Shown here: one piece after another, positions 43,117-64,000 of the stretch
Position numbering within the stretch: the first letter of the stretch is position 1
Layout: each line of letters opens with the position of its first letter
From: Escherichia coli
Lineage (GTDB): Bacteria > Pseudomonadota > Gammaproteobacteria > Enterobacterales > Enterobacteriaceae
Reading direction: 5' to 3' (one strand)
DNA length: 64,000 bases
Assembly (NCBI RefSeq): GCF_003334305.1
Contig: NZ_QOWS01000002.1
Position numbers and translations under genes: made by a program
The notes under the pieces: model-generated
Told to the model about the DNA's origin: nothing
The model's database searches: none
What the model saw: only the letters and a program-made list of their open reading frames with translations

Positions 43117-44025
43117 ATGATGTTAAGTAAGAAAAACAGCGAGACGCTGGAAAATTTCAGTGAAAAGCTGGAGGTCGAAGGGCGCAGCTTGTGGCAGGAC
43201 GCACGTCGACGTTTTATGCATAACCGTGCGGCGGTTGCCAGTCTGATAGTGCTGGTGCTGATCGCGTTATTTGTAATCCTGGCACCGATGCTTTCCCAGT
43301 TTGCCTATGACGATACTGACTGGGCGATGATGTCCAGCGCCCCGGATATGGAGTCCGGTCACTACTTTGGTACTGACTCATCCGGTCGCGACCTGCTTGT
43401 GCGCGTTGCGATTGGCGGGCGTATCTCACTCATGGTCGGTGTTGCTGCGGCACTGGTGGCTGTGGTCGTCGGGACACTTTATGGTTCGCTTTCCGGTTAT
43501 CTGGGCGGTAAAGTGGATTCGGTAATGATGCGTCTGCTGGAAATCCTCAACTCCTTCCCATTCATGTTCTTCGTCATTTTGCTGGTGACCTTTTTCGGTC
43601 AAAACATCCTGCTGATTTTCGTGGCGATTGGCATGGTTTCCTGGCTGGATATGGCTCGTATTGTGCGTGGGCAAACCCTGAGTCTGAAGCGCAAAGAGTT
43701 TATTGAGGCGGCACAAGTTGGCGGTGTATCGACATCGGGCATTGTTATTCGCCACATTGTGCCGAATGTACTCGGTGTGGTGGTGGTCTACGCATCACTT
43801 CTGGTGCCCAGCATGATCCTCTTTGAATCTTTCCTTAGCTTCCTGGGGTTGGGTACGCAAGAGCCGTTAAGCAGCTGGGGTGCATTGCTGAGTGATGGCG
43901 CGAACTCGATGGAAGTCTCTCCATGCTTATTGTTGTTCCCAGCGGGATTCCTCGTGGTGACGCTGTTTTGTTTCAACTTTATCGGCGATGGCTTGCGTGA
44001 TGCCCTCGACCCGAAAGATCGTTAA
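43117..44025 (+). CDS. oppC: Oligopeptide ABC transporter permease OppC
   Basis: Track ORF 302 aa. Confidence 0.95.
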   Translation: MMLSKKNSETLENFSEKLEVEGRSLWQDARRRFMHNRAAVASLIVLVLIALFVILAPMLSQFAYDDTDWAMMSSAPDMESGHYFGTDSSGRDLLVRVAIGGRISLMVGVAAALVAVVVGTLYGSLSGYLGGKVDSVMMRLLEILNSFPFMFFVILLVTFFGQNILLIFVAIGMVSWLDMARIVRGQTLSLKRKEFIEAAQVGGVSTSGIVIRHIVPNVLGVVVVYASLLVPSMILFESFLSFLGLGTQEPLSSWGALLSDGANSMEVSPCLLLFPAGFLVVTLFCFNFIGDGLRDALDPKDR

Positions 44026-44036
44026 GGAGTGCAGCC

Positions 44037-45050
44037 ATGAGCGTAATTGAAACTGCAACTGTGCCGCTCGCACAACAACAGGCTGACGCACTGCTGAACG
44101 TGAAAGATTTGCGTGTCACCTTTAGTACCCCGGACGGCGACGTCACGGCGGTCAATGATTTGAATTTTTCCCTACGTGCCGGAGAAACGCTGGGTATTGT
44201 AGGTGAGTCTGGTTCGGGTAAATCGCAAACTGCATTTGCGTTGATGGGCCTGTTGGCTGCCAACGGACGTATTGGCGGATCGGCAACCTTCAATGGGCGT
44301 GAAATCCTCAATTTGCCAGAGCATGAACTCAATAAACTGCGCGCTGAACAAATCTCAATGATTTTTCAGGACCCAATGACTTCGTTGAATCCCTATATGC
44401 GCGTCGGTGAGCAGTTAATGGAAGTGCTGATGCTGCATAAGAACATGAGCAAAGCTGAGGCGTTTGAAGAGTCGGTGCGGATGCTCGATGCGGTAAAAAT
44501 GCCGGAAGCGCGTAAACGCATGAAAATGTACCCGCACGAATTTTCTGGCGGCATGCGTCAGCGAGTCATGATTGCGATGGCATTGCTATGTCGACCTAAG
44601 CTACTGATTGCGGATGAACCCACTACTGCGCTGGACGTCACCGTACAGGCGCAGATCATGACGCTATTAAATGAACTGAAGCGGGAATTTAATACCGCCA
44701 TCATTATGATCACCCACGATCTTGGCGTGGTGGCGGGGATCTGCGACAAAGTGCTGGTAATGTACGCCGGGCGCACGATGGAATATGGCAATGCGCGCGA
44801 TGTCTTTTATCAACCCGTTCATCCTTATTCTATCGGTTTGCTCAACGCGGTGCCGCGTCTTGATGCGGAAGGTGAAACAATGTTGACCATCCCGGGTAAT
44901 CCGCCAAACTTGCTGCGATTACCGAAAGGTTGCCCGTTCCAGCCACGTTGTCCACATGCGATGGAAATTTGTAGTAGCGCACCGCCGCTGGAAGAGTTTA
45001 CGCCTGGCCGTCTGCGTGCTTGCTTTAAACCGGTGGAGGAACTGTTATGA
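44037..45050 (+). CDS. oppD: Oligopeptide ABC transporter ATPase OppD
   Basis: Track ORF 337 aa, Walker A GESGSGKS and ABC signature. Confidence 0.95.
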   Translation: MSVIETATVPLAQQQADALLNVKDLRVTFSTPDGDVTAVNDLNFSLRAGETLGIVGESGSGKSQTAFALMGLLAANGRIGGSATFNGREILNLPEHELNKLRAEQISMIFQDPMTSLNPYMRVGEQLMEVLMLHKNMSKAEAFEESVRMLDAVKMPEARKRMKMYPHEFSGGMRQRVMIAMALLCRPKLLIADEPTTALDVTVQAQIMTLLNELKREFNTAIIMITHDLGVVAGICDKVLVMYAGRTMEYGNARDVFYQPVHPYSIGLLNAVPRLDAEGETMLTIPGNPPNLLRLPKGCPFQPRCPHAMEICSSAPPLEEFTPGRLRACFKPVEELL

Positions 45051-46051
45051 ATGCTGTAACTGAAGGAAGAAAAGTCCTCCTTGAAATCGCCGATCTTAAA
45101 GTGCACTTTGAAATCAAAGATGGCAAACAGTGGTTCTGGCAACCGCCGAAAACGCTCAAAGCCGTCGATGGTGTCACTCTTCGCCTGTATGAAGGGGAAA
45201 CATTAGGTGTGGTAGGGGAATCGGGATGCGGTAAGTCCACCTTTGCTCGCGCCATCATCGGTTTGGTCAAGGCGACCGACGGTCATGTTGCCTGGTTAGG
45301 TAAAGAGTTGCTGGGCATGAAGCCCGATGAATGGCGTGCCGTTCGCAGTGATATTCAGATGATTTTCCAGGATCCGTTGGCATCGCTAAACCCGCGTATG
45401 ACCATCGGCGAGATCATCGCTGAACCACTGCGTACTTATCATCCGAAAATGTCACGCCAGGAAGTTCGCGAGCGCGTGAAGGCGATGATGCTGAAAGTCG
45501 GGTTATTGCCTAACCTGATTAACCGCTATCCGCATGAGTTCTCCGGTGGGCAGTGCCAGCGTATCGGGATTGCTCGTGCTCTTATTCTTGAACCGAAGCT
45601 GATTATCTGCGATGAGCCGGTTTCGGCGCTGGACGTGTCAATTCAGGCGCAGGTGGTCAACCTGCTCCAGCAGCTGCAACGTGAGATGGGATTGTCATTA
45701 ATTTTTATCGCTCATGACCTGGCCGTGGTAAAACACATTTCCGATCGTGTGTTGGTGATGTATCTCGGCCATGCGGTAGAACTGGGGACCTATGATGAGG
45801 TCTACCACAATCCACTACATCCTTACACCAGGGCATTGATGTCGGCAGTCCCCATACCTGATCCGGATCTGGAGAAGAACAAAACCATCCAGTTACTGGA
45901 AGGGGAATTACCGTCGCCGATCAACCCGCCTTCCGGTTGTGTTTTCCGTACCCGTTGCCCGATTGCCGGTCCGGAGTGCGCCAAAACACGTCCTGTTCTG
46001 GAGGGGAGTTTCAGACACGCCGTTTCTTGCCTGAAAGTCGATCCGCTTTAA
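45047..46051 (+). CDS. oppF: Oligopeptide ABC transporter ATPase OppF
   Basis: Track ORF 334 aa, Walker A GESGCGKS; overlaps oppD stop. Confidence 0.95.
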   Translation: MNAVTEGRKVLLEIADLKVHFEIKDGKQWFWQPPKTLKAVDGVTLRLYEGETLGVVGESGCGKSTFARAIIGLVKATDGHVAWLGKELLGMKPDEWRAVRSDIQMIFQDPLASLNPRMTIGEIIAEPLRTYHPKMSRQEVRERVKAMMLKVGLLPNLINRYPHEFSGGQCQRIGIARALILEPKLIICDEPVSALDVSIQAQVVNLLQQLQREMGLSLIFIAHDLAVVKHISDRVLVMYLGHAVELGTYDEVYHNPLHPYTRALMSAVPIPDPDLEKNKTIQLLEGELPSPINPPSGCVFRTRCPIAGPECAKTRPVLEGSFRHAVSCLKVDPL

Positions 46052-46060
46052 ACACAATAA

Positions 46061-46086
46061 GGGCTGACAGTTGTCAGCCCTTTTTC
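46061..46086. terminator. Hairpin terminator between convergent oppF and yciU
   Basis: gggctgacagttgtcagccc followed by a T-run. Confidence 0.55.
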
Positions 46087-46103
46087 ACGCCGAAAGCGAT
46101 TAT

Positions 46104-47928
<1,825 letters not shown>

Positions 47929-48070
47929 AGATTAGAAATCCTTTTGAAAGCGCATTGTTATGAGTTTACGCATATGGATTCATCTGGCAAATAAAAACGC
48001 GGGAAAAGCACTGGTCAGCGTCGGGGGCGGGGGTATAATGACCATTCTGTTATTGCATAGAGTAGTTAAC

Positions 48071-48244
48071 ATGAAGCGGAGTAGAACGGAAGTGGGGCGC
48101 TGGCGCATGCAGCGTCAGGCTAGCCGACGTAAATCGCGTTGGCTTGAGGGGCAATCGCGCCGAAATATGCGTATCCACAGCATCAGGAAGTGCATTCTAA
48201 ACAAACAGCGTAACTCGTTATTGTTTGCGATCTACAATATCTAA
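48071..48244 (+). CDS. yciY: Small basic protein YciY
   Basis: Internal ATG of track ORF giving MKRSRTEVGRWRMQRQASRRKSRWLEG..., 57 aa; matches my recollection of the annotated small protein between cls and kch. Confidence 0.55.
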   Translation: MKRSRTEVGRWRMQRQASRRKSRWLEGQSRRNMRIHSIRKCILNKQRNSLLFAIYNI

Positions 48245-48298
48245 ATGTACTGGGCACCATTGCGGTGCCCAATAAGTTTACTCTTTCGTCTTTAAACT

Positions 48299-49552
48299 CT
48301 ATTTTTGCACCGATTCTTTACTGTCAGCTTTCGTTTCTTGTTCATCGTTATCGCTGAAAATACCATGACCTGAGTTCAACAACATTGAAACGAGCATATC
48401 ATTATTAATCTCTTCACCGTTTAAAACTCGCGCCAGAATTTCGCTGCCAAACAGTTGCGGTGAGAGAATGATATCCGGATGTACCATCTTAATCTTATTC
48501 AGGTTTTTGCTATCACTGACGGCGAGAACTGTTTTGACATCACTGCTCATATCTTTTGCCGAGAGTACAACAAACGCGTTATCTGCATCGTTATCACTCA
48601 GCGCCAGAATGGCCCGGCATCGATCGATTCCCGCTTTCTTTAATACTGAACTGTCATTACTGTCACCGGGGATAACATCAGCGTTATCGCCTAAGCGTTG
48701 CTCAAGTTGCTTGATATCATCTTCAGGCAAGTTGCTGATAACCGTTACGTTTTGTCCGCGTTGATTCAGTTGCAGGATCGTATTGATGGCGAGAATCGAA
48801 TGTCCGCAAACAATAAAATGATCTTTACGATGCATTGTATGATTGTTTCCTTTTACAAGTTTGTTGAATCCCCCGCGGATAAGCGGACCAAAAATTGAGG
48901 TCATAGATGTGGCAAAAACGGTAATGCCGGAAATAATGACCGAAATAGTGAACAATCGTGCTGATTCAGAAACAGGGACAATATCTCCATAGCCGACGGT
49001 TGACATGGTTTCTATCGAAAAATAGAACGCGGTCATCAAACTTTCTATTCGCGGATTAAAACCTTCGCTTAAATAAAGCGCACCGTAGGTTGAGTAAAAC
49101 AGTAATGTCGTGAAACTAATAAATGCAAAAATTGTCCCGGCTGCGGCGCTACTGTGGGAGAAGTCTTTGCGCAGTATCAGCAAAAACACCAGCGTAAAAA
49201 TGCAAAATCCAATACTAAATTTCAGCCAGGGATAAAAATGCAGGGTGTAAATTAGCGCTATCAACAACAAAATGATACTGATTGCCCATGCGAGCTTTGC
49301 CCGGAACAGTAAGCCAATGGAGTTCAGGACAAGAAAGACGCCGAGCATAAATAGTGGGGCGTTTGCCAGCAAGGAGAGATCCAACTCTGAAAATGCTTTG
49401 ATATGGAAAATATCAAGCAAATTGACCGACATACCATAGATTGTTTTAAAAATAAGCAATCCATTTAAAAAGACGGCCAGCGCGAGAATGTCGTGCCGTA
49501 GGGTCACCCATAAATTTGTTGCTGTTTGTTTGAATGTAGCCCAGTGACTCAC
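48299..49552 (-). CDS. kch: Voltage-gated potassium channel Kch
   Basis: Track ORF trimmed to GTG giving (M)SHWATFKQTATNLW..., 417 aa; selectivity filter TVGYGD and RCK/TrkA region. Confidence 0.9.
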   Translation of the reverse strand: MSHWATFKQTATNLWVTLRHDILALAVFLNGLLIFKTIYGMSVNLLDIFHIKAFSELDLSLLANAPLFMLGVFLVLNSIGLLFRAKLAWAISIILLLIALIYTLHFYPWLKFSIGFCIFTLVFLLILRKDFSHSSAAAGTIFAFISFTTLLFYSTYGALYLSEGFNPRIESLMTAFYFSIETMSTVGYGDIVPVSESARLFTISVIISGITVFATSMTSIFGPLIRGGFNKLVKGNNHTMHRKDHFIVCGHSILAINTILQLNQRGQNVTVISNLPEDDIKQLEQRLGDNADVIPGDSNDSSVLKKAGIDRCRAILALSDNDADNAFVVLSAKDMSSDVKTVLAVSDSKNLNKIKMVHPDIILSPQLFGSEILARVLNGEEINNDMLVSMLLNSGHGIFSDNDEQETKADSKESVQK

Positions 49553-49850
49553 TGATACCTCTGTAACCACAATTTTGTTTAATTATCTTAGCGTGCACAT
49601 TTTCTGAACATACATGCAGCGCGTGAATGTGTTAAACAATAGTAGATGACTTTATCGGCAGTAATCAAAGGTTTTGAGCGAGCAACTCTGCGTCAGGAAA
49701 GGGCATTTTCCTGAATATGTTCACATCATATAAAGAAATACAGATAAAGTTATTATCTGCTTGTGGTGGTGAATGCACTGACCGGCTATAAGGAAAGGCC
49801 AAACAAGAACACGGTTGCAAAAACCGTGCCCTTAAATATTGAATCTCTAT

Positions 49851-50147
49851 TCAGAACACTTTCTTAAATGGTTTCACTGAAACGTGTTCATAGACTCCTG
49901 CCGCTACGTACGGGTCAGCATCGGCCCAGGCCTGAGCTGCTTCCAGCGATTCAAATTCAGCAATAACGGTTGAGCCAGTAAATCCCGCAGCCCCTGGATC
50001 GTTACTGTCTACCGCTGGCATTGGACCAGCTGTCAACAAACGACCTTCATCATGCAGTAACTGTAAACGTGCTAAATGTGCCGGACGAACGGAAAGGCGT
50101 TTTTCGAGGCTATCAGCTTTGTCTTGAGCGTAAATAACATACAACAC
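49851..50147 (-). CDS. yciI: YciI-like protein
   Basis: Track ORF trimmed to GTG giving (M)[24 protein letters not shown]..., 98 aa. Confidence 0.85.
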
Positions 50148-50302
50148 GGGCACAACTCCTTGTTCGGGAAAGTTGTAAAGTACGTTATTTGAAAGGGCGA
50201 AGATCTGCAACGGAAAGATGATGTCTTTGTTAAGACCATGCATAAATTAAGGTCAATTACGCCAAAAATGACATTTTCACTGATCCTGATCGTCTTGCCT
50301 TA

Positions 50303-50327
50303 TTGAATATGATTGCTATTTGCATTT
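50303..50327 (+). promoter_or_regulatory. Fur box overlapping the tonB promoter
   Basis: ttgaatatgattgctatttgcattt, AT-rich dyad resembling the Fur consensus, about 45 nt upstream of tonB ATG. Confidence 0.6.
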
Positions 50328-50370
50328 AAAATCGAGACCTGGTTTTTCTACTGAAATGATTATGACTTCA

Positions 50371-51090
50371 ATGACCCTTGATTTACCTCGCCGCTTCCCC
50401 TGGCCGACGTTACTTTCGGTCTGCATTCATGGTGCTGTTGTGGCGGGTCTGCTCTATACCTCGGTACATCAGGTTATTGAACTACCTGCGCCTGCGCAGC
50501 CAATTTCTGTCACGATGGTTGCGCCTGCTGATCTCGAACCGCCACAAGCCGTTCAGCCGCCACCGGAGCCGGTGGTAGAGCCAGAACCGGAACCTGAGCC
50601 GATCCCCGAACCACCAAAAGAAGCACCGGCGGTCATTGAAAAGCCGAAGCCGAAACCTAAGCCAAAACCGAAGCCGGTGAAAAAGGTACAGGAGCAGCCA
50701 AAACGCGATGTCAAACCCGTAGAGTCGCGTCCGGCATCACCGTTTGAAAATACGGCACCCGCACGCCTGACATCAAGTACGGCAACGGCTGCAACCAGCA
50801 AGCCGGTTACCAGTGTGGCTTCAGGACCACGCGCATTAAGCCGTAATCAGCCGCAGTATCCGGCACGAGCACAGGCATTGCGCATTGAAGGGCAGGTTAA
50901 AGTTAAATTTGACGTCACGCCGGATGGTCGCGTGGATAACGTACAAATCCTCTCAGCCAAGCCTGCGAACATGTTTGAGCGTGAGGTGAAAAATGCGATG
51001 CGCAGATGGCGTTATGAGCCGGGTAAGCCAGGCAGTGGGATTGTGGTGAATATCCTGTTTAAAATTAACGGCACCACCGAAATTCAGTAA
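50371..51090 (+). CDS. tonB: Energy transducer TonB
   Basis: Track ORF trimmed to ATG at 50371 giving [26 protein letters not shown]..., 239 aa; Pro-rich EP/KP repeats. Confidence 0.93.
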
Positions 51091-51097
51091 GCAGAAA

Positions 51098-51127
51098 GTC
51101 AAAAGCCTCCGACCGGAGGCTTTTGAC
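51098..51127. terminator. Bidirectional hairpin terminator between tonB and yciA
   Basis: gtcaaaagcctccgaccggaggcttttgac, symmetric with flanking A and T runs. Confidence 0.65.
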
Positions 51128-51129
51128 TA

Positions 51130-51528
51130 TTACTCAACAGGTAAGGCGCGAGGTTTTCCTTCAGGATCAACCGCGACATACTTAAATAATGCTTCTGTCG
51201 CTTTATAGCGTTGCCCGATTGGTTCAGACGCTACTTTTTTCACCCACACTTCAATATTAATGCTGACCGATGTCGTCCCTTTCTGGACACAGCGTGCATA
51301 GCAGCACACCACATCGCCGACCGCAACCGGCCGTAAGAAAGTCATTCCTTCAACCCGCACGGTCACTACGCGACCGTGGGCAATTTCTTTCGCCAGAATA
51401 GCGCCGCCAATATCCATTTGTGACATTAACCAACCACCAAAGATGTCACCGTTGGCATTGGTATCGGCGGGCATGGCTAAAGTACGTAAAACAAGATCGC
51501 CCTGAGGGACGTTATGTGTTGTAGACAT
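51130..51528 (-). CDS. yciA: Acyl-CoA thioesterase YciA
   Basis: Track ORF 132 aa, hotdog-fold type. Confidence 0.9.
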   Translation of the reverse strand: MSTTHNVPQGDLVLRTLAMPADTNANGDIFGGWLMSQMDIGGAILAKEIAHGRVVTVRVEGMTFLRPVAVGDVVCCYARCVQKGTTSVSINIEVWVKKVASEPIGQRYKATEALFKYVAVDPEGKPRALPVE

Positions 51529-51632
51529 GGTAAAACCGACTTAAAAGGAAAATCACAGGCGCGATGCTACTATGATTTTCCTGAGGAGAACAGAGGAGAT
51601 ACAGCGCCAGCCCCGAAGGACTGGCAGTCTGG

Positions 51633-52172
51633 TTAGGATTTATCTTCCTGCGGCATGTGGCGGTAGATATAGATACCGCTTAACAATGTGAAGATTAAGG
51701 TAAGGGCGGTCAGTCCAAAGACTTTAAAGTTGACCCAAATATTTTGCGGCAGCCAGAATGCGATGTAGATGTTTGCCAGACCGCAAAGGATAAAGAAAAC
51801 AGCCCAGGCCAGATTCAGCTTCGACCATACCGGTTGCGGCAGCGTGAGTTCTTTACCCAGCATCCGCTGAATTAGCGGCTTTTTCATCACCCATTGGCTG
51901 ACTAACAGGGCTCCCGCAAACAGAGCATAAATGACTGTAACCTTCCATTTAATAAACTCATCATTGTGGAAGAACAGCGTCAAGCCACCGAAGACGACCA
52001 CCAGAACAAAAGTGATCAGGGCCATCTTCTCAACCTTACGAAAGCGAACCCAGCTATAGATAAGCACAATCGCCGTGGCGACGATCAGCGCCGCAGTAGC
52101 CGCATAGATGTCATAAATCTTGTAAAACGCGAAAAAGACAACCAGCGGTAAAAAATCAAGAAACTGCTTCAT
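51633..52172 (-). CDS. yciB: Inner-membrane protein YciB
   Basis: Track ORF 179 aa, hydrophobic. Confidence 0.9.
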
Positions 52173-52201
52173 TTTACGATTCCGTAATCAAATGCTTAAG
52201 G

Positions 52202-52945
52202 TTATTGGCGAATCAACATATACAGGCGGAACAGATAGATGAGCAATATGGCAGAAATCAGGTTGCTCAAGGTGTTCGCCAGTACGGCACCAATTTCCGG
52301 GGTTAATGCGGCAAAAGAAGAGGCAAAAAGCAGCAACAGTGTTTTTGCCAGCAACCAGCTCAGTACTGCGGGTGCCACCAGACGCATATTCGCCCAAGTC
52401 AGCCGCATACTGCTACGCATCGAGGCAAAAATGCCCATTTTGTCCTGTACCAGCATCACCGGTGCCAGGGCCAGTAAAATGGCCATGATAATTCCCGGAA
52501 CGACCACCAGCATGATGCCAATCTGTACTAAAAGGGTAGTCAGAAAAATCAGAATAAATAACTTGGGCAATATCGGCGCACTGGCACCAATAGCTCGCAG
52601 CGCACTGACTCTCTGACCCGCAGACACCAGCTGGATAATTAATATTACGCCTCCGGCGAGAATGGCGTTACCGATTAATCCTGAAAAAGTGGACGCCGCT
52701 GAAGCCTGCAGCAAAATTTGTTGCTGTTCCGGTGACATATTCTGAACCAGGTCGAACAACCCACTACTGCCGCTAACGGGCACGCCGTCATTGAGCTGCG
52801 CAAGCTGTGCATCACTGGGTGAGAAAACATGCCCTAACACCACTGTGATAAACGCACATAGCAACGATACCAACAGAATGGTCATAAATTGATTACGGAA
52901 GAAATTTCCGGTGTCACGGTATACGGACTGCGCCGTGATAGACAT
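52202..52945 (-). CDS. yciC: UPF0259 membrane protein YciC
   Basis: Track ORF 247 aa, hydrophobic. Confidence 0.88.
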
Positions 52946-53301
52946 GCACTCTCCTTGAGTTTTATGCAGGTGTTAATTAGCGGGCAATTGTACCCTGGTT
53001 AAGCCTCGGGTGGCAGCATCAGGTCTTGTATGGAAAAGCATATCTTTGTAAAGCGGAGGTAATTGCTGGCCTTCAGGCGTGGGCAAACCGCGGCAAGTGG
53101 CGAACGAGTTAATATTTGCGTAGCGAAAATATTTAAAAATTGATTTAAATCACGTTAACCAGGATTCTCAATGCAACTTCTAAATTAATCCAGATCAATA
53201 AATGGTGAATTATCATATGTAATGTGATCTATGTAGGATCATTTGTTACTCCAATGTAGGTATATTCGTCACGTTTTTATAACCATAACGACGGAGCGGA
53301 T

Positions 53302-53940
53302 ATGAAAAAGTTAACAGTGGCGGCTTTGGCAGTAACAACTCTTCTCTCTGGCAGTGCCTTTGCGCATGAAGCAGGCGAATTTTTTATGCGTGCAGGTTCT
53401 GCAACCGTACGTCCAACAGAAGGTGCTGGTGGTACGTTAGGAAGTCTGGGTGGATTCAGCGTGACCAATAACACTCAACTGGGCCTGACGTTTACTTATA
53501 TGGCGACCGACAACATTGGTGTGGAATTACTGGCAGCGACGCCGTTCCGCCATAAAATCGGCACCCGGGCGACCGGCGATATTGCAACCGTTCACCATCT
53601 GCCGCCAACACTGATGGCGCAGTGGTATTTTGGTGATGCCAGCAGCAAATTCCGTCCTTACGTTGGGGCCGGTATTAACTACACCACCTTCTTTGATAAT
53701 GGATTTAACGATCATGGCAAAGAGGCGGGGCTTTCCGATCTCAGTCTGAAAGATTCCTGGGGAGCTGCCGGGCAGGTGGGGGTTGATTATCTGATTAACC
53801 GTGACTGGTTGGTTAACATGTCAGTGTGGTACATGGATATCGATACCACCGCCAATTATAAGCTAGGCGGTGCACAGCAACACGATAGCGTACGCCTCGA
53901 TCCGTGGGTGTTTATGTTCTCAGCAGGATATCGTTTTTAA
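53302..53940 (+). CDS. ompW: Outer-membrane protein W
   Basis: Track ORF 212 aa with signal peptide and C-terminal aromatic residue (YRF). Confidence 0.93.
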   Translation: MKKLTVAALAVTTLLSGSAFAHEAGEFFMRAGSATVRPTEGAGGTLGSLGGFSVTNNTQLGLTFTYMATDNIGVELLAATPFRHKIGTRATGDIATVHHLPPTLMAQWYFGDASSKFRPYVGAGINYTTFFDNGFNDHGKEAGLSDLSLKDSWGAAGQVGVDYLINRDWLVNMSVWYMDIDTTANYKLGGAQQHDSVRLDPWVFMFSAGYRF

Positions 53941-53999
53941 TTCCGCACAAAAACGACCCCGTAATATACGGGGTCAATAAGGACATGGTATAAAGGGTA

Positions 54000-54506
54000 T
54001 TATTTCTTCGCTTCTACGCCATCAGTTTCAGAACGAATTAAAAATTTCTCAGTTGTTTGCGGAATATGCTGAATCAGCCAGTCGGCCATTTGCTTTTCCT
54101 CATTTAAAATCGCTTCGATGATCGGAATTGAGACTGTATCACCGGCATTTTTTGCTGCTGCTAATAGTGAGGTGTAACAGGCGATTTCAAATTGCTCGAA
54201 GACATATCCGCTAATAGAGCCTTTAACTATTTCATCAGAAGGGAATATACCACCGATTGACTGCCCAAGCGCAGCCATTTTACTCATGGAATCTTTAATG
54301 ACTGAACGTGAAATGTCATTACGATCAAGAATAGTTTCCAGTTGAACAATCTGGTTTTTGGTTTCACTAAGATGTTGTTCAATACGAGCGCGTAGTTCAG
54401 GATAATTATCTATACGACTGGCCATGGATTCAAGCATAGATTCGGCTTGCTTTTCCATTGCGTGGGCGTCACGTAACCAGTCATGATAATGTTCAATACG
54501 ATTCAT
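54000..54506 (-). CDS. yciE: Ferritin-like stress protein YciE
   Basis: Track ORF 168 aa. Confidence 0.88.
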   Translation of the reverse strand: MNRIEHYHDWLRDAHAMEKQAESMLESMASRIDNYPELRARIEQHLSETKNQIVQLETILDRNDISRSVIKDSMSKMAALGQSIGGIFPSDEIVKGSISGYVFEQFEIACYTSLLAAAKNAGDTVSIPIIEAILNEEKQMADWLIQHIPQTTEKFLIRSETDGVEAKK

Positions 54507-54551
54507 GAAAATGTCCTCTTTATAAAATGACTAAAAGTTAAAATTCATATT

Positions 54552-55052
54552 TCAGGCTTTATTTTCGGCTTTCTTATTTACGTTATTAAGGGCCAGATCA
54601 GTCAGTTTGATGTCGGTGGCCTTTTCTTCTTCCAGGGTTTCTTTCAGAAGCTTCGCTGCTTTACGGTAACCTAATTGTTCAGCCAGCGTCGCTAATGTCC
54701 CGTAACTGGCAATCTCATAATGCTCGACTTTCTGTGCTGCGGCAATCAGTGCGGCATCACGCACTTCGTTTTTCTCGGTACTTTCGATGACCTCATTAGC
54801 TTCTTCAATAAGACCTTCCATTGCCACACATTTCATGCGCTTAATTTTCAGGTTCGATTCGGACTCCACAACTTGATCAATACGTTCAATCTGTCCATGA
54901 GTTTCCTCGAGGTGCGCATGAAAAGCCTGACTTAATTTTTCATTTGATGTTGCTCTTGCGAGTTTTGCCAGTGCCCGGGTTAATTGTTTTTCTGCGCTGT
55001 AGGTATCTGAAAGCAGGTGAATAAATACATCTTCAATGGTCTTGATATTCAT
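54552..55052 (-). CDS. yciF: Ferritin-like stress protein YciF
   Basis: Track ORF trimmed to internal ATG giving MNIKTIEDVFIHLLSDTYSAEKQL..., 166 aa. Confidence 0.88.
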   Translation of the reverse strand: MNIKTIEDVFIHLLSDTYSAEKQLTRALAKLARATSNEKLSQAFHAHLEETHGQIERIDQVVESESNLKIKRMKCVAMEGLIEEANEVIESTEKNEVRDAALIAAAQKVEHYEIASYGTLATLAEQLGYRKAAKLLKETLEEEKATDIKLTDLALNNVNKKAENKA

Positions 55053-55137
55053 ATTTTTCTCCAGTGAAATCACTGCGAGCCATACGGCCCGCAGATGCAA
55101 TTATCTTTATCAGCTGATATTAATAATTAACGGTGAA

Positions 55138-55317
55138 TCAGGATTTACCTGATTTATTACCACCGCTTTGTTGACCGCCTTTTTTACCCGCTTCAGATGC
55201 GCGTTGCGGATCATTTTTAAAATTACCGCCGCTATGCTGACCGCCTTTACGGCCTGCGTCGGATGCCTTCTCACGGTCTTCGGCGAAATTTCCTGAACCA
55301 CCACGATGTTCGGCCAT
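55138..55317 (-). CDS. yciG: KGG-repeat stress protein YciG
   Basis: Track ORF trimmed to internal ATG giving MAEHRGGSGNFAEDREKASDAGRKGGQHSGGN..., 59 aa. Confidence 0.8.
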   Translation of the reverse strand: MAEHRGGSGNFAEDREKASDAGRKGGQHSGGNFKNDPQRASEAGKKGGQQSGGNKSGKS

Positions 55318-55661
55318 GTTATTTCTCCCGTTGCGTTGCATTGTTTCATTAATATGAGTGTTGTGTGTCGACACTCATTAAAATTAGTCGCTAATGAGAA
55401 TTAGTCAAATTAAGCGCAACGAGAAGATAGAGGGAAAATATATTTTGAGGAACATTCTGGATATATTAACAATTACCTGAGGAATAAGTGACTTAGAGAA
55501 AATTATTGATTTTACTGGTGTTATGTTGCGGGATTAATTTGTTTGATTATATTACTGTTGGGCGGAAAAATGACGTAAGTTGACGTTCGACCGGGGTAAG
55601 CGAAACGGTAAAAAGATAAATATTAAATGAATTTAGGATTTTTCCGGCTTCATTAAAGAAA

Positions 55662-55691
55662 GTTAAAATGCCGCCAGCGGAACTGGCGGCT
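55662..55691 (-). terminator. trp operon terminator after trpA
   Basis: gccgccagcggaactggcggc hairpin with adjacent A-run on the plus strand, immediately past the trpA stop. Confidence 0.65.
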
Positions 55692-55697
55692 GTGGGA

Positions 55698-56504
55698 TTA
55701 ACTGCGCGTCGCCGCTTTCATCGGTTGTACAAAAACTTTCAGTGCCGCCAGCATTTTCTCTGGCTCATTAATATGTTGCTCGATGATTTTAACAATGGCC
55801 GAACCAGAAATCGCGCCCGCAGCTCCTGCATCAATCGCTGCTTTTACCTGATCCGGGGCGGAAATACCAAACCCCTGCAATGGAGGTGCAGCGTTGTACT
55901 CTTTCAGCTTCGCAACCAGATGATTGAGGGGTAACGCGGCGCGGTTTTCTGCGCCGGTCACGCCCGCTCGTGACAGCAAATAGGTGTAACCACGACCGTA
56001 AGAGGCTATCTGGCGCAGCAGGTCGTCATCGGCATTTGGCGGGCAGATGAAGATAGGTGCGACATTATGGCGCAACGCGGCCTGGCGGAAGGGCGCGGAC
56101 TCTTCAATTGGCACATCGGCAACCAGCACCGAATCGACGCCGACTTTCTCGCACTGGGCATAAAACTCATCAATGCCTTTGTTAAACACCAGATTGGCAT
56201 ACATCAACAGGCCAATGGGAATGGTCGGGTGTTTCTGGCGAATCAGTGCCAGCATTTCAAAACATTGTGCCGGAGTCACACCTGCCGCAAAGGCGCGCAG
56301 AGTGGCGTTTTGAATGGTCGGGCCATCCGCCAGTGGGTCGGAGAAGGGGATACCTAACTCCAGCGCGTCAGCACCGGCTTCAATTAGCGTATCGATAATT
56401 TTCAATGACTGCTCAATGCCCGGATCACCGAGCGTGACGAAAGGAACGAATGCGCCTTCTTTGCGCTCCTTCAACTGGGCAAACAGAGATTCGTAGCGTT
56501 CCAT
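55698..56504 (-). CDS. trpA: Tryptophan synthase alpha chain
   Basis: Track ORF 268 aa [28 protein letters not shown]... Confidence 0.97.
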
Positions 56505-57697
56505 CAGATTTCCCCTCGTGCTTTCAAAATATCGTGAACGGTGAAGATGTCTTTATCGCCGCGACCGGAAAGGTTAACCACCAGTAGCTGCTCTTTATCC
56601 GGGTTTTCGCGCATCATTTTCAACGCATGGGCCAGGGCGTGGGAGGATTCCAGCGCCGGGATGATCCCTTCGTGCAGGCACAGCGTTTTGAAGGCTTCAA
56701 GGGCTTCATCATCGGTAATAGACACGTAATCAGCGCGTCCAGTGCTGTTAAGATACGCGTGTTGTGGGCCGACAGACGGGAAATCCAGTCCGGCGGAGAT
56801 GGAGTAAGATTCTTCAATCTGCCCGTCTTCGGTTTGCATCATCGGCGCTTTCATACCGAAATAGATACCCACGCGACCATGTTTTAGCGGTGCGCCGTGC
56901 TCGCCAGTTTCGATACCGTGACCACCTGGCTCCACACCAATCAGGCCGACGTTGGTTTCATTGATGAAATCAGCAAACATGCCGATGGCATTCGAACCGC
57001 CGCCAACACAGGCGATAACGGCATCCGGCAGGCGACCTTCTCTTTCCAGAATCTGCGCTTTGGTTTCTTCGCCAATCATCCGCTGAAACTCACGCACAAT
57101 GGTCGGATAAGGATGCGGGCCAGCTGCGGTGCCCAGCATATAGTGCGCGGTTTCGTAACTACCGGACCAGTCGCGCAGCGCCTCGTTACAGGCATCTTTC
57201 AGCGTCGCGGAACCGCTATGCACCGGGATCACTTCCGCACCCATTAAGCGCATACGAAAAACGTTAGGCGACTGGCGTTCAACGTCTTTGGCACCCATAT
57301 AAATACGGCATTTCAGGCCGAGCAGGGCGCTGGCAAGGGCCGACGCCACGCCATGCTGACCGGCACCGGTTTCGGCGATGATTTCGGTTTTACCCATCCG
57401 CTTCGCCAGCAACGCCTGCCCCAGCACCTGGTTAGTTTTATGCGCGCCGCCGTGCAGCAAATCTTCACGCTTGAGATACAGCGTGGTGTTCGTCCCGGCT
57501 GTAATGTTCTGGCATTTGGTCAGCGCGGTTGGACGCCCGGCATAGTTTTTCAGCAGGTCGTTGAACTGAGCCTGAAATTCAGGATCTTTTTGCGCACTGA
57601 CAAAAGCTTCTTCCAGCTGGCGCAGAGCAGGCATCAGGATTTGTGGCACGTACATGCCGCCAAACTCACCAAAATAGGGGTTAAGTAATGTTGTCAT
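56504..57697 (-). CDS. trpB: Tryptophan synthase beta chain
   Basis: Track ORF 397 aa [25 protein letters not shown]...; 1-nt overlap with trpA. Confidence 0.97.
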
Positions 57698-57708
57698 TGT
57701 TCCTTTCC

Positions 57709-59070
57709 TTAATATGCGCGCAGCGTCTGGAAAACCGAGGCCAAAAGACGTGCGTCTTTGATGCCCGGTTGCGACTCTACAGCAGAATTAAAATCAAGTC
57801 CGGCGCAGCCGGTTTGTGCCGCTTCCACGCAGTTATCTGCGCCTAAGCCCCCCGCCAGCAGAACGTTGCCAAGCGATTGACCATTTAATAGTGACCAGTC
57901 AAAACGTTGCCCGCTTCCACCCTGGCCGTTGTCTAAAACATATTTATCAACGTGCTGAAACTCGCGGGCGGGCAGGGTTTCACCGACGCTTAATGCTTTC
58001 CAGATGGCAACATGTGCTGGCAGAGCTTCACGCAGCGTATCGATATACAGCTGTTCTTCATTACCATGCAGTTGCACTGCCGCCAGCGATAACACCTTAG
58101 CTTTGTCCACCACATCGGCAATATCGTGATTGCGGAACACGCCAACATACTGCAACGGTGCCGCAGCCATCACTTCCTGCGCCTGTTCAACGTTGACGCA
58201 ACGCGGTGATGTCGCAACAAAAATCAACCCACCGTAAATCGCGCCCGCGTCATAAGCTGCTTTAGCATCTTGCCCACGCGTCAGGCCACATACTTTATTC
58301 TCACCCAGCAACACCCGGCGCACGGCGGCGTGCAAATCGTCATGGGCCATCAACGCCGAACCAATCAGAAAACCGTTAGCGAAGTGGCTTAACTCGCGCA
58401 CCTGAGCGTAAGTATTGATGCCGGATTCGCTGATTACCGTCACGTTGTGCCCCAGTTTCGGCGCAAGCTCGCGGGTACGGTTGAGATCAATCGACAAATC
58501 ACGCAGATCGCGGTTGTTGATGCCAACGACCTTTGCCCCCAATGCAATGGCACGCTCCAGTTCCTCTTCATTACTGACTTCGGTCAGCACACCCATCTCC
58601 AGACTGTGGGCGACGGCGGCAAGCTGGCGATATTGTTCGTCATCCAGTACTGAAAGCATTAATAAGCAGGCATCAGCCTGGTAATAGCGCGCCAGATAGA
58701 TCTGGTAAGGATCGATAATGAAGTCTTTACATAAAATCGGCTGCGGGGCGATTTGGCTGACGATGGGGAGGAAATCAAAGCTCCCCTGAAAATATTTCTC
58801 ATCAGTCAGCACCGAAATTGCCGAAGCGTAATGTTTATAAATGGCGGCAATGCGTGCTGGATCGAAATCATCACGGATCACGCCTTTTGACGGCGACGCT
58901 TTCTTGCACTCCAGAATAAACGCCGTGCGCGCACCCTGTAGCGCATCATAAAAATGTCGCGTGCTCGGCTGAACCTCATTCTGAAAACTGGCCAGCGGTT
59001 GCTGCTGTTTGCGGGTTTCTACCCAAATCGCCTTGTCTGCGACGATTTTCGCTAAAACGGTTTGCATCAT
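57709..59070 (-). CDS. trpC: Bifunctional indole-3-glycerol-phosphate synthase / phosphoribosylanthranilate isomerase
   Basis: Track ORF 453 aa. Confidence 0.97.
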
Positions 59071-60666
59071 TTACCCTCGTGCCGCCAGTGCGGTAACTCT
59101 GTCGTAAGCGGAACCACTGCGCAGTACCTCAAGAACGGTTTGCGCATTGGCTTGCAGATCTTCATGGCCATGCAGGCGCATTAACATGGCGACGTTCGCA
59201 GCGACGGCTGCTTCATGGGCGGCGTCGCCTTTACCTTGTAACAAGCGTGTTAAAATGTCACGGTTTTCTTCCGGTGTTCCGCCTGCCAGTTGCTCCTGGT
59301 GGTAGGGAGTCAGGCCAAAATCTTCAGCGGTCAATTGATAGCTCTTAATTTCGCCGTCATGCAGCTCGGCAACGATTGTCGGCGCGTGTAATGAAACTTC
59401 ATCCATCCCGCCGCTGTGCACCACCGCCGCGCGTTGATACCCCAGCACGCGCAAGGTTTCGGCAATCGGCAGCACCAGTTCCGGACTATAAACACCAATT
59501 AACGCCAGCGGCGGATGCGCCGGGTTAATCAATGGCCCCAGCACATTGAACAGGGTGCGGGTTTTCAGTTGCTGGCGAACCGGCATCGCGTGGCGGAATC
59601 CGGTGTGATACTTCGGCGCAAAGAGGAAACATACACCTAACTCATCCAGCGCCTGGCGCGATTTATCGGCGTTCATATCAAGATTAATACCGAACGCCGC
59701 CAGCAGATCGGACGAACCAGATTTACTGGAGACGCTACGGTTGCCGTGTTTCGCCACTTTCAGCCCACAGGCCGCGGCGACAAACGCACTGGCGGTAGAA
59801 ATATTGATACTGTTGCTGCCGTCACCGCCAGTACCGACGATATCAGCAAACAGATAATCCGGGCGCGGGAACGGCGCGGCGTTTTCCAGTAGCGCGGTTG
59901 CTGCTCCGGCGATCTCGTTCGGGTGCTCACCGCGAATTTTCATGCTCACCAGCGCCGCCGCCAGTTGTTCCGGCTTCAGCTCGCCACGCACCACCGCTGA
60001 AAACAGCTGGTGGCTTTCTTGTTGGCTAAGCGTCTGCGCCTGATACAGTTTTTCCAGAATCGGTTGCAGCGTGTTGGCTGGCTCTAGTTTCTGCTGCGCC
60101 CAGGCCAGCGTTTGTTCCAGCAGGCGAGCGCCCTGGGTGGTGAGAATGGATTCCGGATGGAACTGGAATCCACAAACGCGATCCGCATCGTGACGTACTG
60201 CCATCACCATGCCATTAAAATGGGCGTTGATGGTTAAACCGGCCGGAATGTTACTGCCAACCAGCGAGTGATAACGCGCCACCGGCAGCGGGTTTGTTAA
60301 TCCGGCAAACATCGCCTGACCGTCATGTTCAATGCTCGACGCTTTACCGTGAAGAATTTCGCCCGCCTGACCGACATACCCCCCATAAGCTTCGACAATC
60401 GCCTGATGACCGAGGCAAATGCCAATAATGGGCAGCTTGCCACGCAAGCGGGTGAGGAGTTCCGGCATACAACCGGCTTCGCTCGGCACACCGGGGCCAG
60501 GAGAAAGCATCAGTACCGGATTGCTCATCGTCGCCAGGCGTTCAATTAAGGTCTGCGCCGGAATATGGTTGCGGTAAATCACCACATTATGCCCATTGCT
60601 GCGCAACTGATCTGCCAGGTTGTACGTAAAAGAGTCGATATTATCGAGCAGCAGAATGTCAGCCAT
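59071..60666 (-). CDS. trpD: Anthranilate synthase component II / anthranilate phosphoribosyltransferase
   Basis: Track ORF 531 aa with N-terminal glutamine amidotransferase region. Confidence 0.97.
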
Positions 60667-62228
60667 CAGAAAGTCTCCTGTGCATGATGCGCGGTGGCAA
60701 TAGCGCGCAGTACAGCGCGGGCTTTATTACGGGTTTCGTCGGCTTCCGACTGCGGAACAGAATCAAGGACTACGCCAGCACCGGCTTGCACGGTGGCGAT
60801 ACCGTTTTCCACCAGCGCCGAGCGGATCACAATGCAGGTGTCGAGATCGCCATGCGCGGTGAAATAACCTACCGCGCCGCCGTAGCTGCCGCGGCGACGA
60901 CCTTCCGCCTCGGCAATTAACTGCATGGCGCGCACTTTCGGCGCACCGCTTAACGTCCCCATATTCATACAGGCGCGGTAAGCGTGTAGGGCGTCGAGAT
61001 CGTGGCGCAGTTCACCGACCACGCGGGAGACCAGGTGCATCACGTAAGAGTAACGGTCAACTTTGGTGAGGTCGGCGACGTAGCGGCTGCCGGGGGTGCA
61101 AATGCGTGCCAGATCATTACGGGCAAGATCCACCAGCATCAGATGTTCAGAAAGCTCTTTATGATCGGTACGCATTTCCAGTTCGATGCGGCTGTCGAGG
61201 TCTCTGTCCAGCGAGCCATCGGCACGACGACCGCGTGGACGTGTTCCGGCAATCGGGTAGATCTCAATCTGGCGGCTGGTGGCGTCATACTTGAGCGAAC
61301 TTTCCGGCGACGCGCCAAACAGGGTGAAATCATTATCCTGCATAAAAAACATGTACGGGCTGGGATTACTCTTTTTCAGCACGTAATAGGCCGCCAGCGG
61401 TGACGGGCAGGGCAGAGAGAAACGGCGAGATGGCACCACCTGGAAAATTTCTCCAGCGCGAATCGCTTTTTGCAACAAACGCACTACGCCACCGAACTCT
61501 TCATCGCTCTGATTACATTCACAACGCATATGCGGCACGGAAACCACCGGCAGCGGCGGCGCGGCTTCGGTCAGTTGCTGACGTAGTTCGTTCAGGCGAG
61601 CAGTGAGACGTTGTTTTTCTTCTTCATTCGGAGCAAACAGGCTGGCCTGAATACGGGTGCTTTTTTTCTGATGGTCAATCACCATCAGAGTTTCAGCGAG
61701 ATAAAAACAGAAATCAGGGCAGTTATTTTCCGCTGACAGTTGCGGTAAATCTTCAAATCCCGCCACAAGGTCATAAGAGAACAGGCCGCCGAAGAACATT
61801 GCTTCTCGTTCTTCCTTCGGTACATTCAACAGATTCTGCAATAAACGGAAAGCGTCAAAAACCGAAAGGGAGCATAAGCGAGCGTCTTCATCCAGCAGTG
61901 GACTGACAGGGGGGAAGCGCAGCACACGGCAGTTTGGTGATTGTTCATTTTCCACACCCGCAGGCAGGGCGTTATCCAGTAGTGTCAGCAGGGCTTCGCC
62001 GTTGCCGGAAAGTGCCTGGATTGTGACAGTGTCACCTAAAGCTGTAATGCGCAGCGCACTGTCTACCAGCAGCAGGCTTTTTAAATCATCTTTGCTGTCG
62101 ATATCTGCGGATTCCAGCAGCAGCGTTGCCGGACGATCCCCACACAACTGGTGAAAAAGCGCGGTGGGATTGTCGCGATAAGCGCCTTCGCAGGTTAGCA
62201 GTTCGAGAGTCGGTTTTTGTGTTTGCAT
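60666..62228 (-). CDS. trpE: Anthranilate synthase component I
   Basis: Track ORF 520 aa [28 protein letters not shown]...; 1-nt overlap with trpD. Confidence 0.97.
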
Positions 62229-62249
62229 TGTTATTCTCTAATTTTGTTC

Positions 62250-62277
62250 AAAAAAAAGCCCGCTCATTAGGCGGGCT
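62250..62277 (-). terminator. trp attenuator (3:4 hairpin plus U-run)
   Basis: Minus strand reads agcccgcctaatgagcgggcttttttttg between trpL and trpE. Confidence 0.85.
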
Positions 62278-62319
62278 GGGTATCTGATTGCTTTACGCAT
62301 GGTGAATACACTGCCCGTT

Positions 62320-62364
62320 TCAGGAAGTGCGCCACCAACCTTTCAGTACGAAAATTGCTTTCAT
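62320..62364 (-). CDS. trpL: trp leader peptide, 14 aa with tandem Trp codons
   Basis: Reverse complement ATGAAAGCAATTTTCGTACTGAAAGGTTGGTGGCGCACTTCCTGA = [14 protein letters not shown]. Confidence 0.9.
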
Positions 62365-62391
62365 TGTCGATACCCTTTTTACGTGAACTTG

Positions 62392-62426
62392 CGTACTAGT
62401 TAACTGGTTCGATGATTAATTGTCAA
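62392..62426 (-). promoter_or_regulatory. trp promoter with -35 TTGACA, -10 TTAACT and TrpR operator
   Basis: Minus strand reads TGTTGACAATTAATCATCGAACCAGTTAACTAGTACGCAAG; operator half-site differs by one base from the canonical sequence as I recall it. Confidence 0.85.
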
Positions 62427-62501
62427 CAGCTCATTTCAGAATATTTGCCAGAACCGTTATGATGTCGGCGCAAAAAAAATTATCCAGAACGGGAGTGCGC
62501 C

Positions 62502-63383
62502 TTGAGCGACACGAATTATGCAGTGATTTACGACCTGCACAGCCATACCACAGCTTCCGATGGCTGCCTGACGCCAGAAGCATTGGTGCACCGTGCAGTC
62601 GAGATGCGCGTCGGCACCCTGGCGATCACCGACCATGACACCACAGCTGCAATCGCGCCAGCAAGAGAGGAAATTTCACGTTCGGGACTGGCGTTGAATC
62701 TTATTCCCGGCGTGGAAATTTCCACGGTCTGGGAAAATCATGAAATTCATATTGTCGGGCTGAATATTGATATTACTCATCCGCTAATGTGTGAGTTCCT
62801 CGCGCAGCAGACAGAACGGCGCAATCAGCGGGCGCAGCTGATTGCCGAAAGACTTGAAAAAGCGCAAATACCTGGGGCGCTGGAAGGCGCACAACGACTG
62901 GCGCAGGGCGGCGCAGTGACGCGCGGTCATTTTGCGCGTTTCCTTGTTGAGTGCGGCAAAGCCAGTTCAATGGCGGATGTCTTTAAAAAGTATCTGGCGC
63001 GCGGGAAAACCGGATACGTTCCGCCACAGTGGTGTACAATAGAACAAGCTATTGATGTCATTCATCATTCTGGCGGTAAGGCGGTGCTAGCTCATCCTGG
63101 GCGGTACAATCTTAGTGCTAAATGGCTGAAAAGATTGGTTGCGCATTTTGCCGAACACCACGGTGACGCGATGGAAGTCGCGCAGTGCCAGCAATCGCCC
63201 AATGAACGTACCCAGCTGGCGGCCCTTGCGCGTCAGCATCATTTATGGGCATCACAAGGATCTGATTTTCATCAGCCATGCCCGTGGATCGAACTGGGTC
63301 GTAAACTCTGGCTGCCCGCAGGCGTTGAAGGCGTCTGGCAGCTATGGGAACAGCCGCAGAACACCACAGAGAGGGAATTATGA
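62502..63383 (+). CDS. yciV: PHP-domain 5'-3' exoribonuclease YciV (TrpH)
   Basis: Track ORF 293 aa starting at TTG, MSDTNYAVIYDLHSHTTASDG... with PHP His motifs. Confidence 0.88.
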   Translation: MSDTNYAVIYDLHSHTTASDGCLTPEALVHRAVEMRVGTLAITDHDTTAAIAPAREEISRSGLALNLIPGVEISTVWENHEIHIVGLNIDITHPLMCEFLAQQTERRNQRAQLIAERLEKAQIPGALEGAQRLAQGGAVTRGHFARFLVECGKASSMADVFKKYLARGKTGYVPPQWCTIEQAIDVIHHSGGKAVLAHPGRYNLSAKWLKRLVAHFAEHHGDAMEVAQCQQSPNERTQLAALARQHHLWASQGSDFHQPCPWIELGRKLWLPAGVEGVWQLWEQPQNTTEREL

Positions 63384-64000
63384 GCCAGTTTTTTTATATT
63401 CATCCTGATAACCCACAGCAACGTCTGATCAACCAGGCGGTGGAGATCGTGCGTAAAGGCGGGGTGATTGTTTATCCAACTGATTCCGGCTATGCGCTCG
63501 GCTGTAAAATTGAAGATAAAAACGCGATGGAGCGTATTTGTCGTATTCGCCAGCTGCCGGACGGTCACAACTTTACCCTGATGTGTCGCGATCTTTCTGA
63601 ACTCTCGACCTATTCATTTGTTGATAACGTTGCGTTTCGTTTAATGAAAAACAACACGCCGGGCAACTATACCTTCATCTTGAAGGGGACGAAGGAAGTG
63701 CCACGCCGTCTGTTGCAGGAAAAACGCAAAACCATCGGTATGCGTGTGCCTTCTAACCCGATTGCGCAGGCGTTGCTTGAAGCACTGGGCGAACCGATGC
63801 TTTCCACTTCGCTAATGCTGCCAGGCAGCGAATTTACCGAATCCGATCCCGAAGAAATTAAAGACCGTCTGGAAAAACAGGTAGATTTGATTATTCACGG
63901 CGGCTATCTCGGGCAGAAACCGACAACGGTTATTGATCTTACCGATGATACGCCGGTCGTGGTGCGTGAAGGCGTAGGTGATGTGAAGCCTTTCTTATAA
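63380..64000 (+). CDS. yciO: YciO, Sua5/YrdC-fold RNA-binding protein
   Basis: Track ORF trimmed to ATG at 63380 giving MSQFFYIHPDNPQQRLINQAVEIVRKGG..., 206 aa; stop is the last codon of the window; ATGA overlap with yciV. Confidence 0.9.
   Translation: MSQFFYIHPDNPQQRLINQAVEIVRKGGVIVYPTDSGYALGCKIEDKNAMERICRIRQLPDGHNFTLMCRDLSELSTYSFVDNVAFRLMKNNTPGNYTFILKGTKEVPRRLLQEKRKTIGMRVPSNPIAQALLEALGEPMLSTSLMLPGSEFTESDPEEIKDRLEKQVDLIIHGGYLGQKPTTVIDLTDDTPVVVREGVGDVKPFL

Follow-up and report, generated by a model that had tools for sequence, protein, structure and literature searches.

Organization of the trp regulatory region

The window, by which we mean the whole 64,000-nucleotide stretch of Escherichia coli DNA that was analysed, ends in the tryptophan biosynthetic region, where the minus strand encodes trpA, trpB, trpCF, trpD, trpE and trpL and the plus strand encodes rnm (trpH) and yciO, with trpR being located outside the window. 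According to the annotation of the record of E. coli strain A7, the neighbourhood includes nar genes, tyrT, hns, adhE, opp and tonB and represents a standard chromosomal stretch. Annotation of the operon was taken from NZ_CP028767.1, which is 100% identical to window positions 44000-64000 (window coordinate = locus coordinate + 14000) and in which trpE, trpD, trpCF, trpB and trpA (55698..62228, minus strand) are full-length and carry no pseudogene flags. Elsewhere in the window, a short fragment annotated in A7 as a pseudogene for a YkgJ-family cysteine-cluster protein is located between yciC and ompW (52973-53062, minus strand). A structural polymorphism was also noted upstream of yciO, where rluB and cobO directly adjoin in the W-type haplotype and yciQ (encoding a DUF2207 protein) is found in K-12, 536, O157 and others; this polymorphism lies outside the window, which stops within yciO.

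The trp promoter, which is of the sigma-70 type, consists of the -35 hexamer TTGACA (62421..62426, minus strand), a 17-bp spacer and the -10 hexamer TTAACT (62398..62403, minus strand), both hexamers being unchanged compared to K-12, and it is positioned upstream of trpL-trpEDCBA. In line with established knowledge of this promoter, TTAACT at 62403..62398 is taken to be the trp -10 hexamer, and the A at 62390 (minus strand), i.e. the first A of AAGTTCACG, is assumed on the same grounds to be the transcription start (+1), which places the trpL ATG at +27. A generic promoter scan of the window did not return the trp promoter in its output, because TTAACT fits only three of the six consensus positions, and this result therefore reflects a limit of the scan and not counter-evidence.

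Downstream of the promoter, the trpL leader peptide (62320..62364, minus strand; WP_001700591.1 in the identical record) is the same as that of K-12 and contains the tandem Trp codons, and the Trp leader/attenuator RNA (62250..62343, minus strand) was recognised by the Rfam model RF00513 (Trp_leader) with a score of 93.1 bits (gathering score, 41), with a terminator hairpin placed within the attenuator by a terminator scan (62257..62277, minus strand). From the promoter through the leader, the window is identical to K-12 except for one substitution, T-16C, and apart from this one base the trp regulatory region is the textbook one.

Two further polymorphic sites were observed in this region. 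Codon 9 of trpL (62338-62340, minus strand), which immediately precedes the two regulatory Trp codons, reads GGT (Gly) in K-12 and in the window and GCT (Ala) in W, HS, O145:H28 and others, corresponding to the leader peptide alleles WP_001700591.1 (Gly9) and WP_001386774.1 (Ala9), respectively. Furthermore, window position 62478, located in the rnm-trp intergenic region 24 bases upstream of the rnm start (alignment column -72), carries a plus-strand A within a run of eight A, at a site that is tri-allelic, with C or T being present in the 15 other strains compared.

A single substitution in the upstream operator half-site

The 41-bp promoter-operator sequence of the window, TGTTGACAATTAATCATCGAACCAGTTAACTAGTACGCAAG, corresponds to the minus strand from 62428 to 62388 and is found once in the window as an exact 41-mer. 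Alignment with K-12 MG1655 revealed a sole promoter-operator mismatch, namely a coding-strand C in place of T at 62406 (minus strand; plus-strand G), an assignment that rests on this alignment and on the allele counts given below. The substitution, designated T-16C, changes the upstream CTAG of the TrpR operator to CCAG. It affects the fifth base off the dyad axis, which runs between -11 and -12, and precedes by three bases the -10 hexamer, with which the operator dyad overlaps. Across the operator core (-21..-2; 62392..62411, minus strand), which was aligned with K-12 and five other strains, the window reads CGAACCAGTTAACTAGTACG and K-12 reads CGAACTAGTTAACTAGTACG. The upstream tetranucleotide (-17..-14; 62404..62407, minus strand) is thus CCAG here and CTAG in K-12, and the downstream CTAG (-9..-6; 62396..62399, minus strand) is intact in the window and replaced by CTGG in the O145:H28 clone.

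In K-12 the operator forms a perfect 14-bp palindrome, ACTAGTTAACTAGT, to which the window matches at 13 of 14 bases, and the pair of CTAG tetranucleotides spaced 8 bp apart that characterizes this operator is reduced to a single one, the upstream member being CCAG. Compared to K-12 trpO/trpP, 40 of 41 bases are the same, and the -35 and -10 hexamers, spacer length, transcription start, leader peptide and attenuator are identical, whereas T-16C disrupts the symmetry of the palindrome at one of its seven pairs and, with the loss of the upstream CTAG, removes one of the two SpeI sites. The CCAG of the window is therefore an allelic deviation within the same orthologous operator site and not a different element. 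These results bear out the first-pass annotation, made from the DNA alone, which had described a plus-strand G at 62406 that generates an ACCAG half-site and alters a CTAG motif, had placed this base 3 nt upstream of the -10 hexamer, and had contrasted it with a perfect palindrome taken as the canonical operator, the latter being indeed that of K-12; its description of the leader peptide and attenuator as intact likewise agrees with the K-12 identity, the Rfam score of 93.1 bits and the terminator hairpin reported above.

Prevalence of the T-16C allele among E. coli genomes

The distribution of T-16C was assessed by megablast with 41-mer queries carrying the allele at their centre against 5,426 complete E. 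coli genomes, a design in which the 28-base exact word must include the allele because of its central position. Using this approach, C at -16 was found in 182 of the 5,426 genomes (approximately 3.4%) and T in 4,811. The exact K-12 41-mer is present in 4,176 genomes, leaving about 23% of the complete E. coli genomes with at least one difference from K-12 in this 41-bp segment. Carriers of T-16C include the uropathogenic strain (UPEC) 536, the E. coli W derivatives KO11FL and SL112 and an O55:H7 strain, and were obtained from humans, cattle, dogs, chickens, rats, marmots, an echidna and seawater. The window itself is 100% identical over 20 kb (positions 44000-64000) to A7, which was obtained from orangutan faeces, and to eight other complete genomes, and approximately 25 genomes, many of which are confirmed T-16C carriers, share 99.7-100% identity with it over this distance; the hosts of this haplotype group comprise orangutan, echidna, cattle, chicken, rat, cat and human.

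When the operator core was considered as a whole by means of a 41-mer centred on the dyad, the segment from -18 to -4 was found to be intact in 5,149 of the 5,422 genomes in which the region is present. Among the 273 genomes (of 5,422) without an exact match, 204 carry either T-16C or A-7G, the latter being the change seen in the O145:H28 clone, and T-16C accounts for at least two thirds (182/273), the residual non-matches amounting to at most 69 genomes that may represent combinations of flanking SNPs. T-16C consequently exceeds every other change in the operator core by a wide margin.

Several other alleles of the trp promoter were recorded, including T-28C (O157:H7; 62418), C-24T (62414), T-22C (62412), C-21T (62411), which is present in 257 genomes, and A+1G (62390), in addition to C-1A (62391), which belongs to the W group and was accompanied by T-16C in every strain examined that carries it. 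At -28, -24, -22, -21, -1 and +1 the window agrees with K-12.

A test of occurrence beyond chance is not applicable to one base, for which reproducibility is the relevant criterion. In this respect, the base at 62406 must be regarded as real because nine independent complete genomes match the window without a difference over 20 kb and the same base is found in 182 genomes. The first-pass annotation had left room for a base-call error as well as for a natural strain polymorphism. Apart from this prior suggestion nothing speaks for a sequencing or assembly error at 62406, and since it would have to have been reproduced in nine complete genomes identical over 20 kb and in 182 genomes from many laboratories and platforms, its probability can be considered negligible. 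The polymorphism reading, on the other hand, is upheld by the 182 carriers among 5,426 complete E. coli genomes and by occurrence of the change in two other genera, and the view of this base as an anomaly does not hold, as reference E. coli operators show the same base. T-16C is thus a real and heritable natural allele and not a mutation private to this strain; the trp element is already known, the allele is present in 182 public genomes, and nothing about it is new in kind.

Recurrent origin of T-16C

To describe the background on which the allele occurs, 6 kb around the promoter was compared among nine carriers, six non-carriers and the window (16 strains; 4,614 indel-free sites). The C allele was found on at least six local E. 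coli haplotypes, the carrier groups being 31 to 148 sites apart, and several of the T-16C haplotypes have a near-identical T-bearing sister. For example, HM670 (O2:H1) differs from its T-bearing sister Nissle at two other sites of the 4,614, cattle strain 113 differs from O157:H7 F7349 at three, the O55:H7 strain DEC5E differs from this same O157:H7 strain at five, and DAM differs from K-12 at 12. In addition, the O157-specific T-28C is kept in strain 113 and is absent from DEC5E, and all four combinations of alleles at -28 and -16 exist even though these positions are merely 12 bp apart.

A similar pattern emerged from a scan across species, in which one genome per species (GTDB representatives) was searched with an operator frame that left the inner two bases of each CTAG free. 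This 26-bp frame is conserved in 44 Enterobacteriaceae species, with CTAG/CTAG being present in 42 and CCAG/CTAG in two, and no third state was found at the four free CTAG positions among the 44 species scanned. The two CCAG/CTAG species, an Enterobacter-like MAG and Buttiauxella sp. B2, have genus-typical flanks and congeners with CTAG. The species representatives of E. coli and Salmonella are absent from these 44 operator-frame matches and presumably differ at a fixed flanking position, such as -21, -22 or +1.

Descent from a single clade with a single origin is ruled out by the haplotype comparison and by the presence of the allele in other genera. Instead, the presence of at least six haplotypes, the near-identical T-bearing sisters and the occurrence in two other genera mark T-16C as a recurrent and independent T-to-C transition that has arisen in at least eight events among the sequences analysed, i.e. 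at least six in E. coli and one in each of the two other genera.

A single origin could also be envisaged in another form, in which the product of a single mutation to C was subsequently transferred to unrelated backgrounds by short gene-conversion tracts. Recombination in the trp region of E. coli is said to be frequent, as reportedly observed in Milkman's ECOR studies, and mosaic patterns are indeed visible in the 16-strain alignment; for instance, the TrpE protein of the window equals that of the W group, whereas its trpL is the K-12 allele, also found in 536, O157:H7 and others, and not the G9A form of the W group. Nevertheless, the imported tracts would need to be very short. In HM670, where Nissle-type markers persist at -72 and at +218/+237, the tract would have to be shorter than about 290 bp, and in strain 113 it must begin inside the 12 bp between -28 and -16. 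Moreover, the changes in Buttiauxella and in the Enterobacter-like MAG sit in genus-specific flanks and for this reason cannot derive from E. coli DNA, and no diagnostic marker common to all carriers was seen within approximately 50 bp. Dissemination from one mutational event is thus largely refuted by the haplotype and species comparisons and is judged highly improbable.

Repair bias and selective filtering as proposed causes of recurrence

It has been described that very-short-patch (VSP) repair, mediated by Vsr, acts on T:G mismatches in CTWGG/CCWGG contexts and can stimulate mutation of CTAGG to CCAGG. This repair is held responsible for the scarcity of CTAG in the genomes of E. coli and Salmonella (Bhagwat & McClelland 1992, as cited), and the two CTAGs between trpH and trpL have been listed among the conserved intergenic survivors that are functionally kept. 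Consistent with such depletion, the window contains 13 CTAG tetranucleotides against approximately 250 expected from base composition, with CCAG and CTGG numbering 466 and 490, respectively, and the only ACTAGT in the 64-kb window is the downstream half of the operator. Furthermore, among the six CTAG sites covered by a 4.6-kb multi-strain alignment, four are polymorphic, with CCAG or CTGG as the alternative allele.

The change from CTAG to CCAG is a T-to-C transition at the second position of a CTAG/CTWGG-like site, a type of change known to be favoured by Vsr repair, and its direction is the one predicted by the CTAG depletion attributed to this repair (Bhagwat & McClelland 1992, as cited). 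In mechanistic terms, a Vsr side-reaction would resolve T:G mismatches in CTAG-like contexts to C:G, which would give rise to CCAG from CTAG. Based on this circumstantial evidence, Vsr repair bias is the favoured but unproven cause of the recurrence of T-16C. The explanation is weakened by the fact that CTAGT is only a four-of-five match to the optimal Vsr site CTWGG, and T-16C would differ from general CTAG depletion in being the erosion of a functional operator site in a sub-optimal CTAGT context. Creation of a new Dcm site by T-16C was also considered and rejected, as ACCAGT is not CCWGG.

Within each ACTAGT hexamer of the operator, CTAG can become CCAG through a T-to-C transition on either strand, and a mutation bias acting alone would be expected to affect equivalent sites equally. 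The observed counts among the 5,426 complete E. coli genomes are far from equal in spite of identical ACTAGT contexts: T-16C is carried by 182 genomes, its exact dyad mirror A-7G (downstream CTAG to CTGG) by 22, of which 20 belong to the O145:H28/O145 clone, and A-15G was not found in any of them. The A-7G allele of O145:H28 is the dyad-symmetric partner of T-16C, CTGG being CCAG on the other strand, and is likewise natural, yet it falls in the downstream half-site, directly after the -10 hexamer on its 3' side, is rarer and is nearly confined to one clone. Because counts are unequal at sites with the same hexamer context, mutation bias alone is insufficient and a selective filter is needed. 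Such a filter can be envisaged from the position of each change: T-8C would kill the promoter by destroying the invariant T of the -10 hexamer, A-15G would weaken the operator and at the same time create an extended -10 TGn motif, and A-7G would abut the -10 hexamer, so that T-16C, which lies outside this hexamer, retains a purine N7 where water makes contact and yields a half-site like that of mtr (see below), would survive as the least costly of the four equivalent changes. Formation of an extended -10 motif through T-16C itself was rejected, as it is A-15G that would make TGn, and A-15G is absent.

The aroH operator has two CTAGs at the same spacing and was surveyed in the same manner; its canonical 41-mer matches 4,804 genomes, only 2,891 of them exactly, and because the aroH flanks are so polymorphic these failures are not assignable to the CTAGs.

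Selection might also be invoked in a positive sense, T-16C having been repeatedly selected since a leakier trp operator helps in some niches, for example where host tryptophan is fluctuating or scarce, in which case recurrence would be due to parallel evolution in cis-regulation and not to a mutational hot spot. This possibility is in keeping with at least six origins in E. coli and two in other genera at a site that is otherwise invariant in 42 of 44 species, with persistence of the allele in diversified lineages (the window group and 536/STEC299) and not only at tips, with its share of at least two thirds of the operator-core non-matches (182/273), and with the absence of the equally mutable A-15G, which shows that selection shapes the changes observed. 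However, adaptive tuning appears unlikely in view of the rarity of other weakening changes, which beyond A-7G (22 genomes) could account for at most 69 genomes, the low frequency of the allele (3.4%) with no sweep, the diverse hosts and sources of the carriers, among which no common niche is apparent, and a direction of change that fits the known repair bias.

Predicted effect on TrpR binding and repression

TrpR reads the CT step of ACTAG through bound water, and swapping CT to TC is stated to reduce affinity approximately 15-fold (Joachimiak et al. 1994, as cited). In the TrpR-operator complex three waters contact purine N7 atoms, each contributing approximately 1 kcal/mol. As the T at -16 lies in this water-read CT step of CTAG, weaker TrpR binding is plausible, and a mild effect is suggested by the retention of a purine N7 on the partner strand when T:A is changed to C:G. 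The first-pass annotation had suggested that the variant could partly relieve repression, and such partial relief is indeed plausible, since the base belongs to the step that is read through water.

A comparison is offered by mtr, which is also repressed by TrpR. The K-12 mtr promoter contains TGTACTCGTGTACTGGTACAGTG, which we take to be the mtr TrpR box reportedly described by Heatwole & Somerville and by Sarsero et al. (1991), and the right half of this sequence reads GTACCAGT, a CCAG half-site. On this assignment, the mtr box has CCAG for CTAG at the same half-site position as T-16C, and the T-16C half-site GAACCAGT matches the mtr half-site GTACCAGT in the ACCAGT core; mtr differs in being another promoter, the other half-site of which is also non-consensus (CTCG).

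A second comparison concerns laboratory mutants of the trp operator. Operator-constitutive (Oc) trp mutants were reportedly isolated in the laboratory by Bennett & Yanofsky in 1978, and symmetric operator mutagenesis is said to have been carried out by Bass et al. in 1987 and by Joachimiak et al. in 1994. These reportedly are, like T-16C, single changes in the CTAG-containing symmetric part of the operator, but the laboratory mutants were selected or engineered for lost repression, whereas T-16C is natural. The variant operator sequence was not found in print in the literature searched, which likewise yielded no useful data on operator-constitutive mutants or from challenge-phage assays.

A lineage of approximately 25 genomes from varied hosts carries T-16C and mtr has a CCAG half-site, both of which argue for at most a mild effect, and the persistence of the allele in the window lineage makes a strongly deleterious effect unlikely. 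T-16C would thus be predicted to modestly weaken TrpR binding at the central site and at the upstream tandem site, the dimers at which have the upstream CTAG in common, and this weaker binding would somewhat raise basal expression of the trp operon when tryptophan is plentiful, with attenuation being unaffected. It is also possible that T-16C is neutral, or that it causes a slight shift in intrinsic promoter strength.

Concluding remarks

The interpretation that we prefer, with a probability of roughly 80%, is that the window carries an ordinary wild E. coli trp promoter-operator with a common and recurrent T-16C allele, which would be explained by Vsr repair bias in combination with functional tolerance and for which a modest weakening of TrpR binding is predicted. 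A broader proposition is that T-16C and its mirror A-7G together represent parallel cis-regulatory evolution towards a mild operator-down allele, either through an advantage of a leakier operon or through Vsr erosion acting against purifying selection; this is offered tentatively and is considered rather unlikely. If it were true, the trp operator would be a natural arena in which DNA-repair bias is opposed to regulatory constraint, and an intermediate repression phenotype would be expected.

What this analysis adds to a known element is the finding that T-16C is recurrent and fits both a known repair bias and functional tolerance, which is of modest population-genetic interest. The perfect operator palindrome of K-12 is not universal in E. 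coli, and this operator difference is relevant to users of 536 or of W-derived production strains, as well as to the annotation of trp regions by analogy with K-12. Furthermore, the recurrent and one-directional change from CTAG to CCAG constitutes a clean natural test of repair bias eroding functional sites as opposed to tuning of repression. If T-16C measurably weakens repression, it would illustrate in a simple manner how a classic regulatory switch varies in nature.
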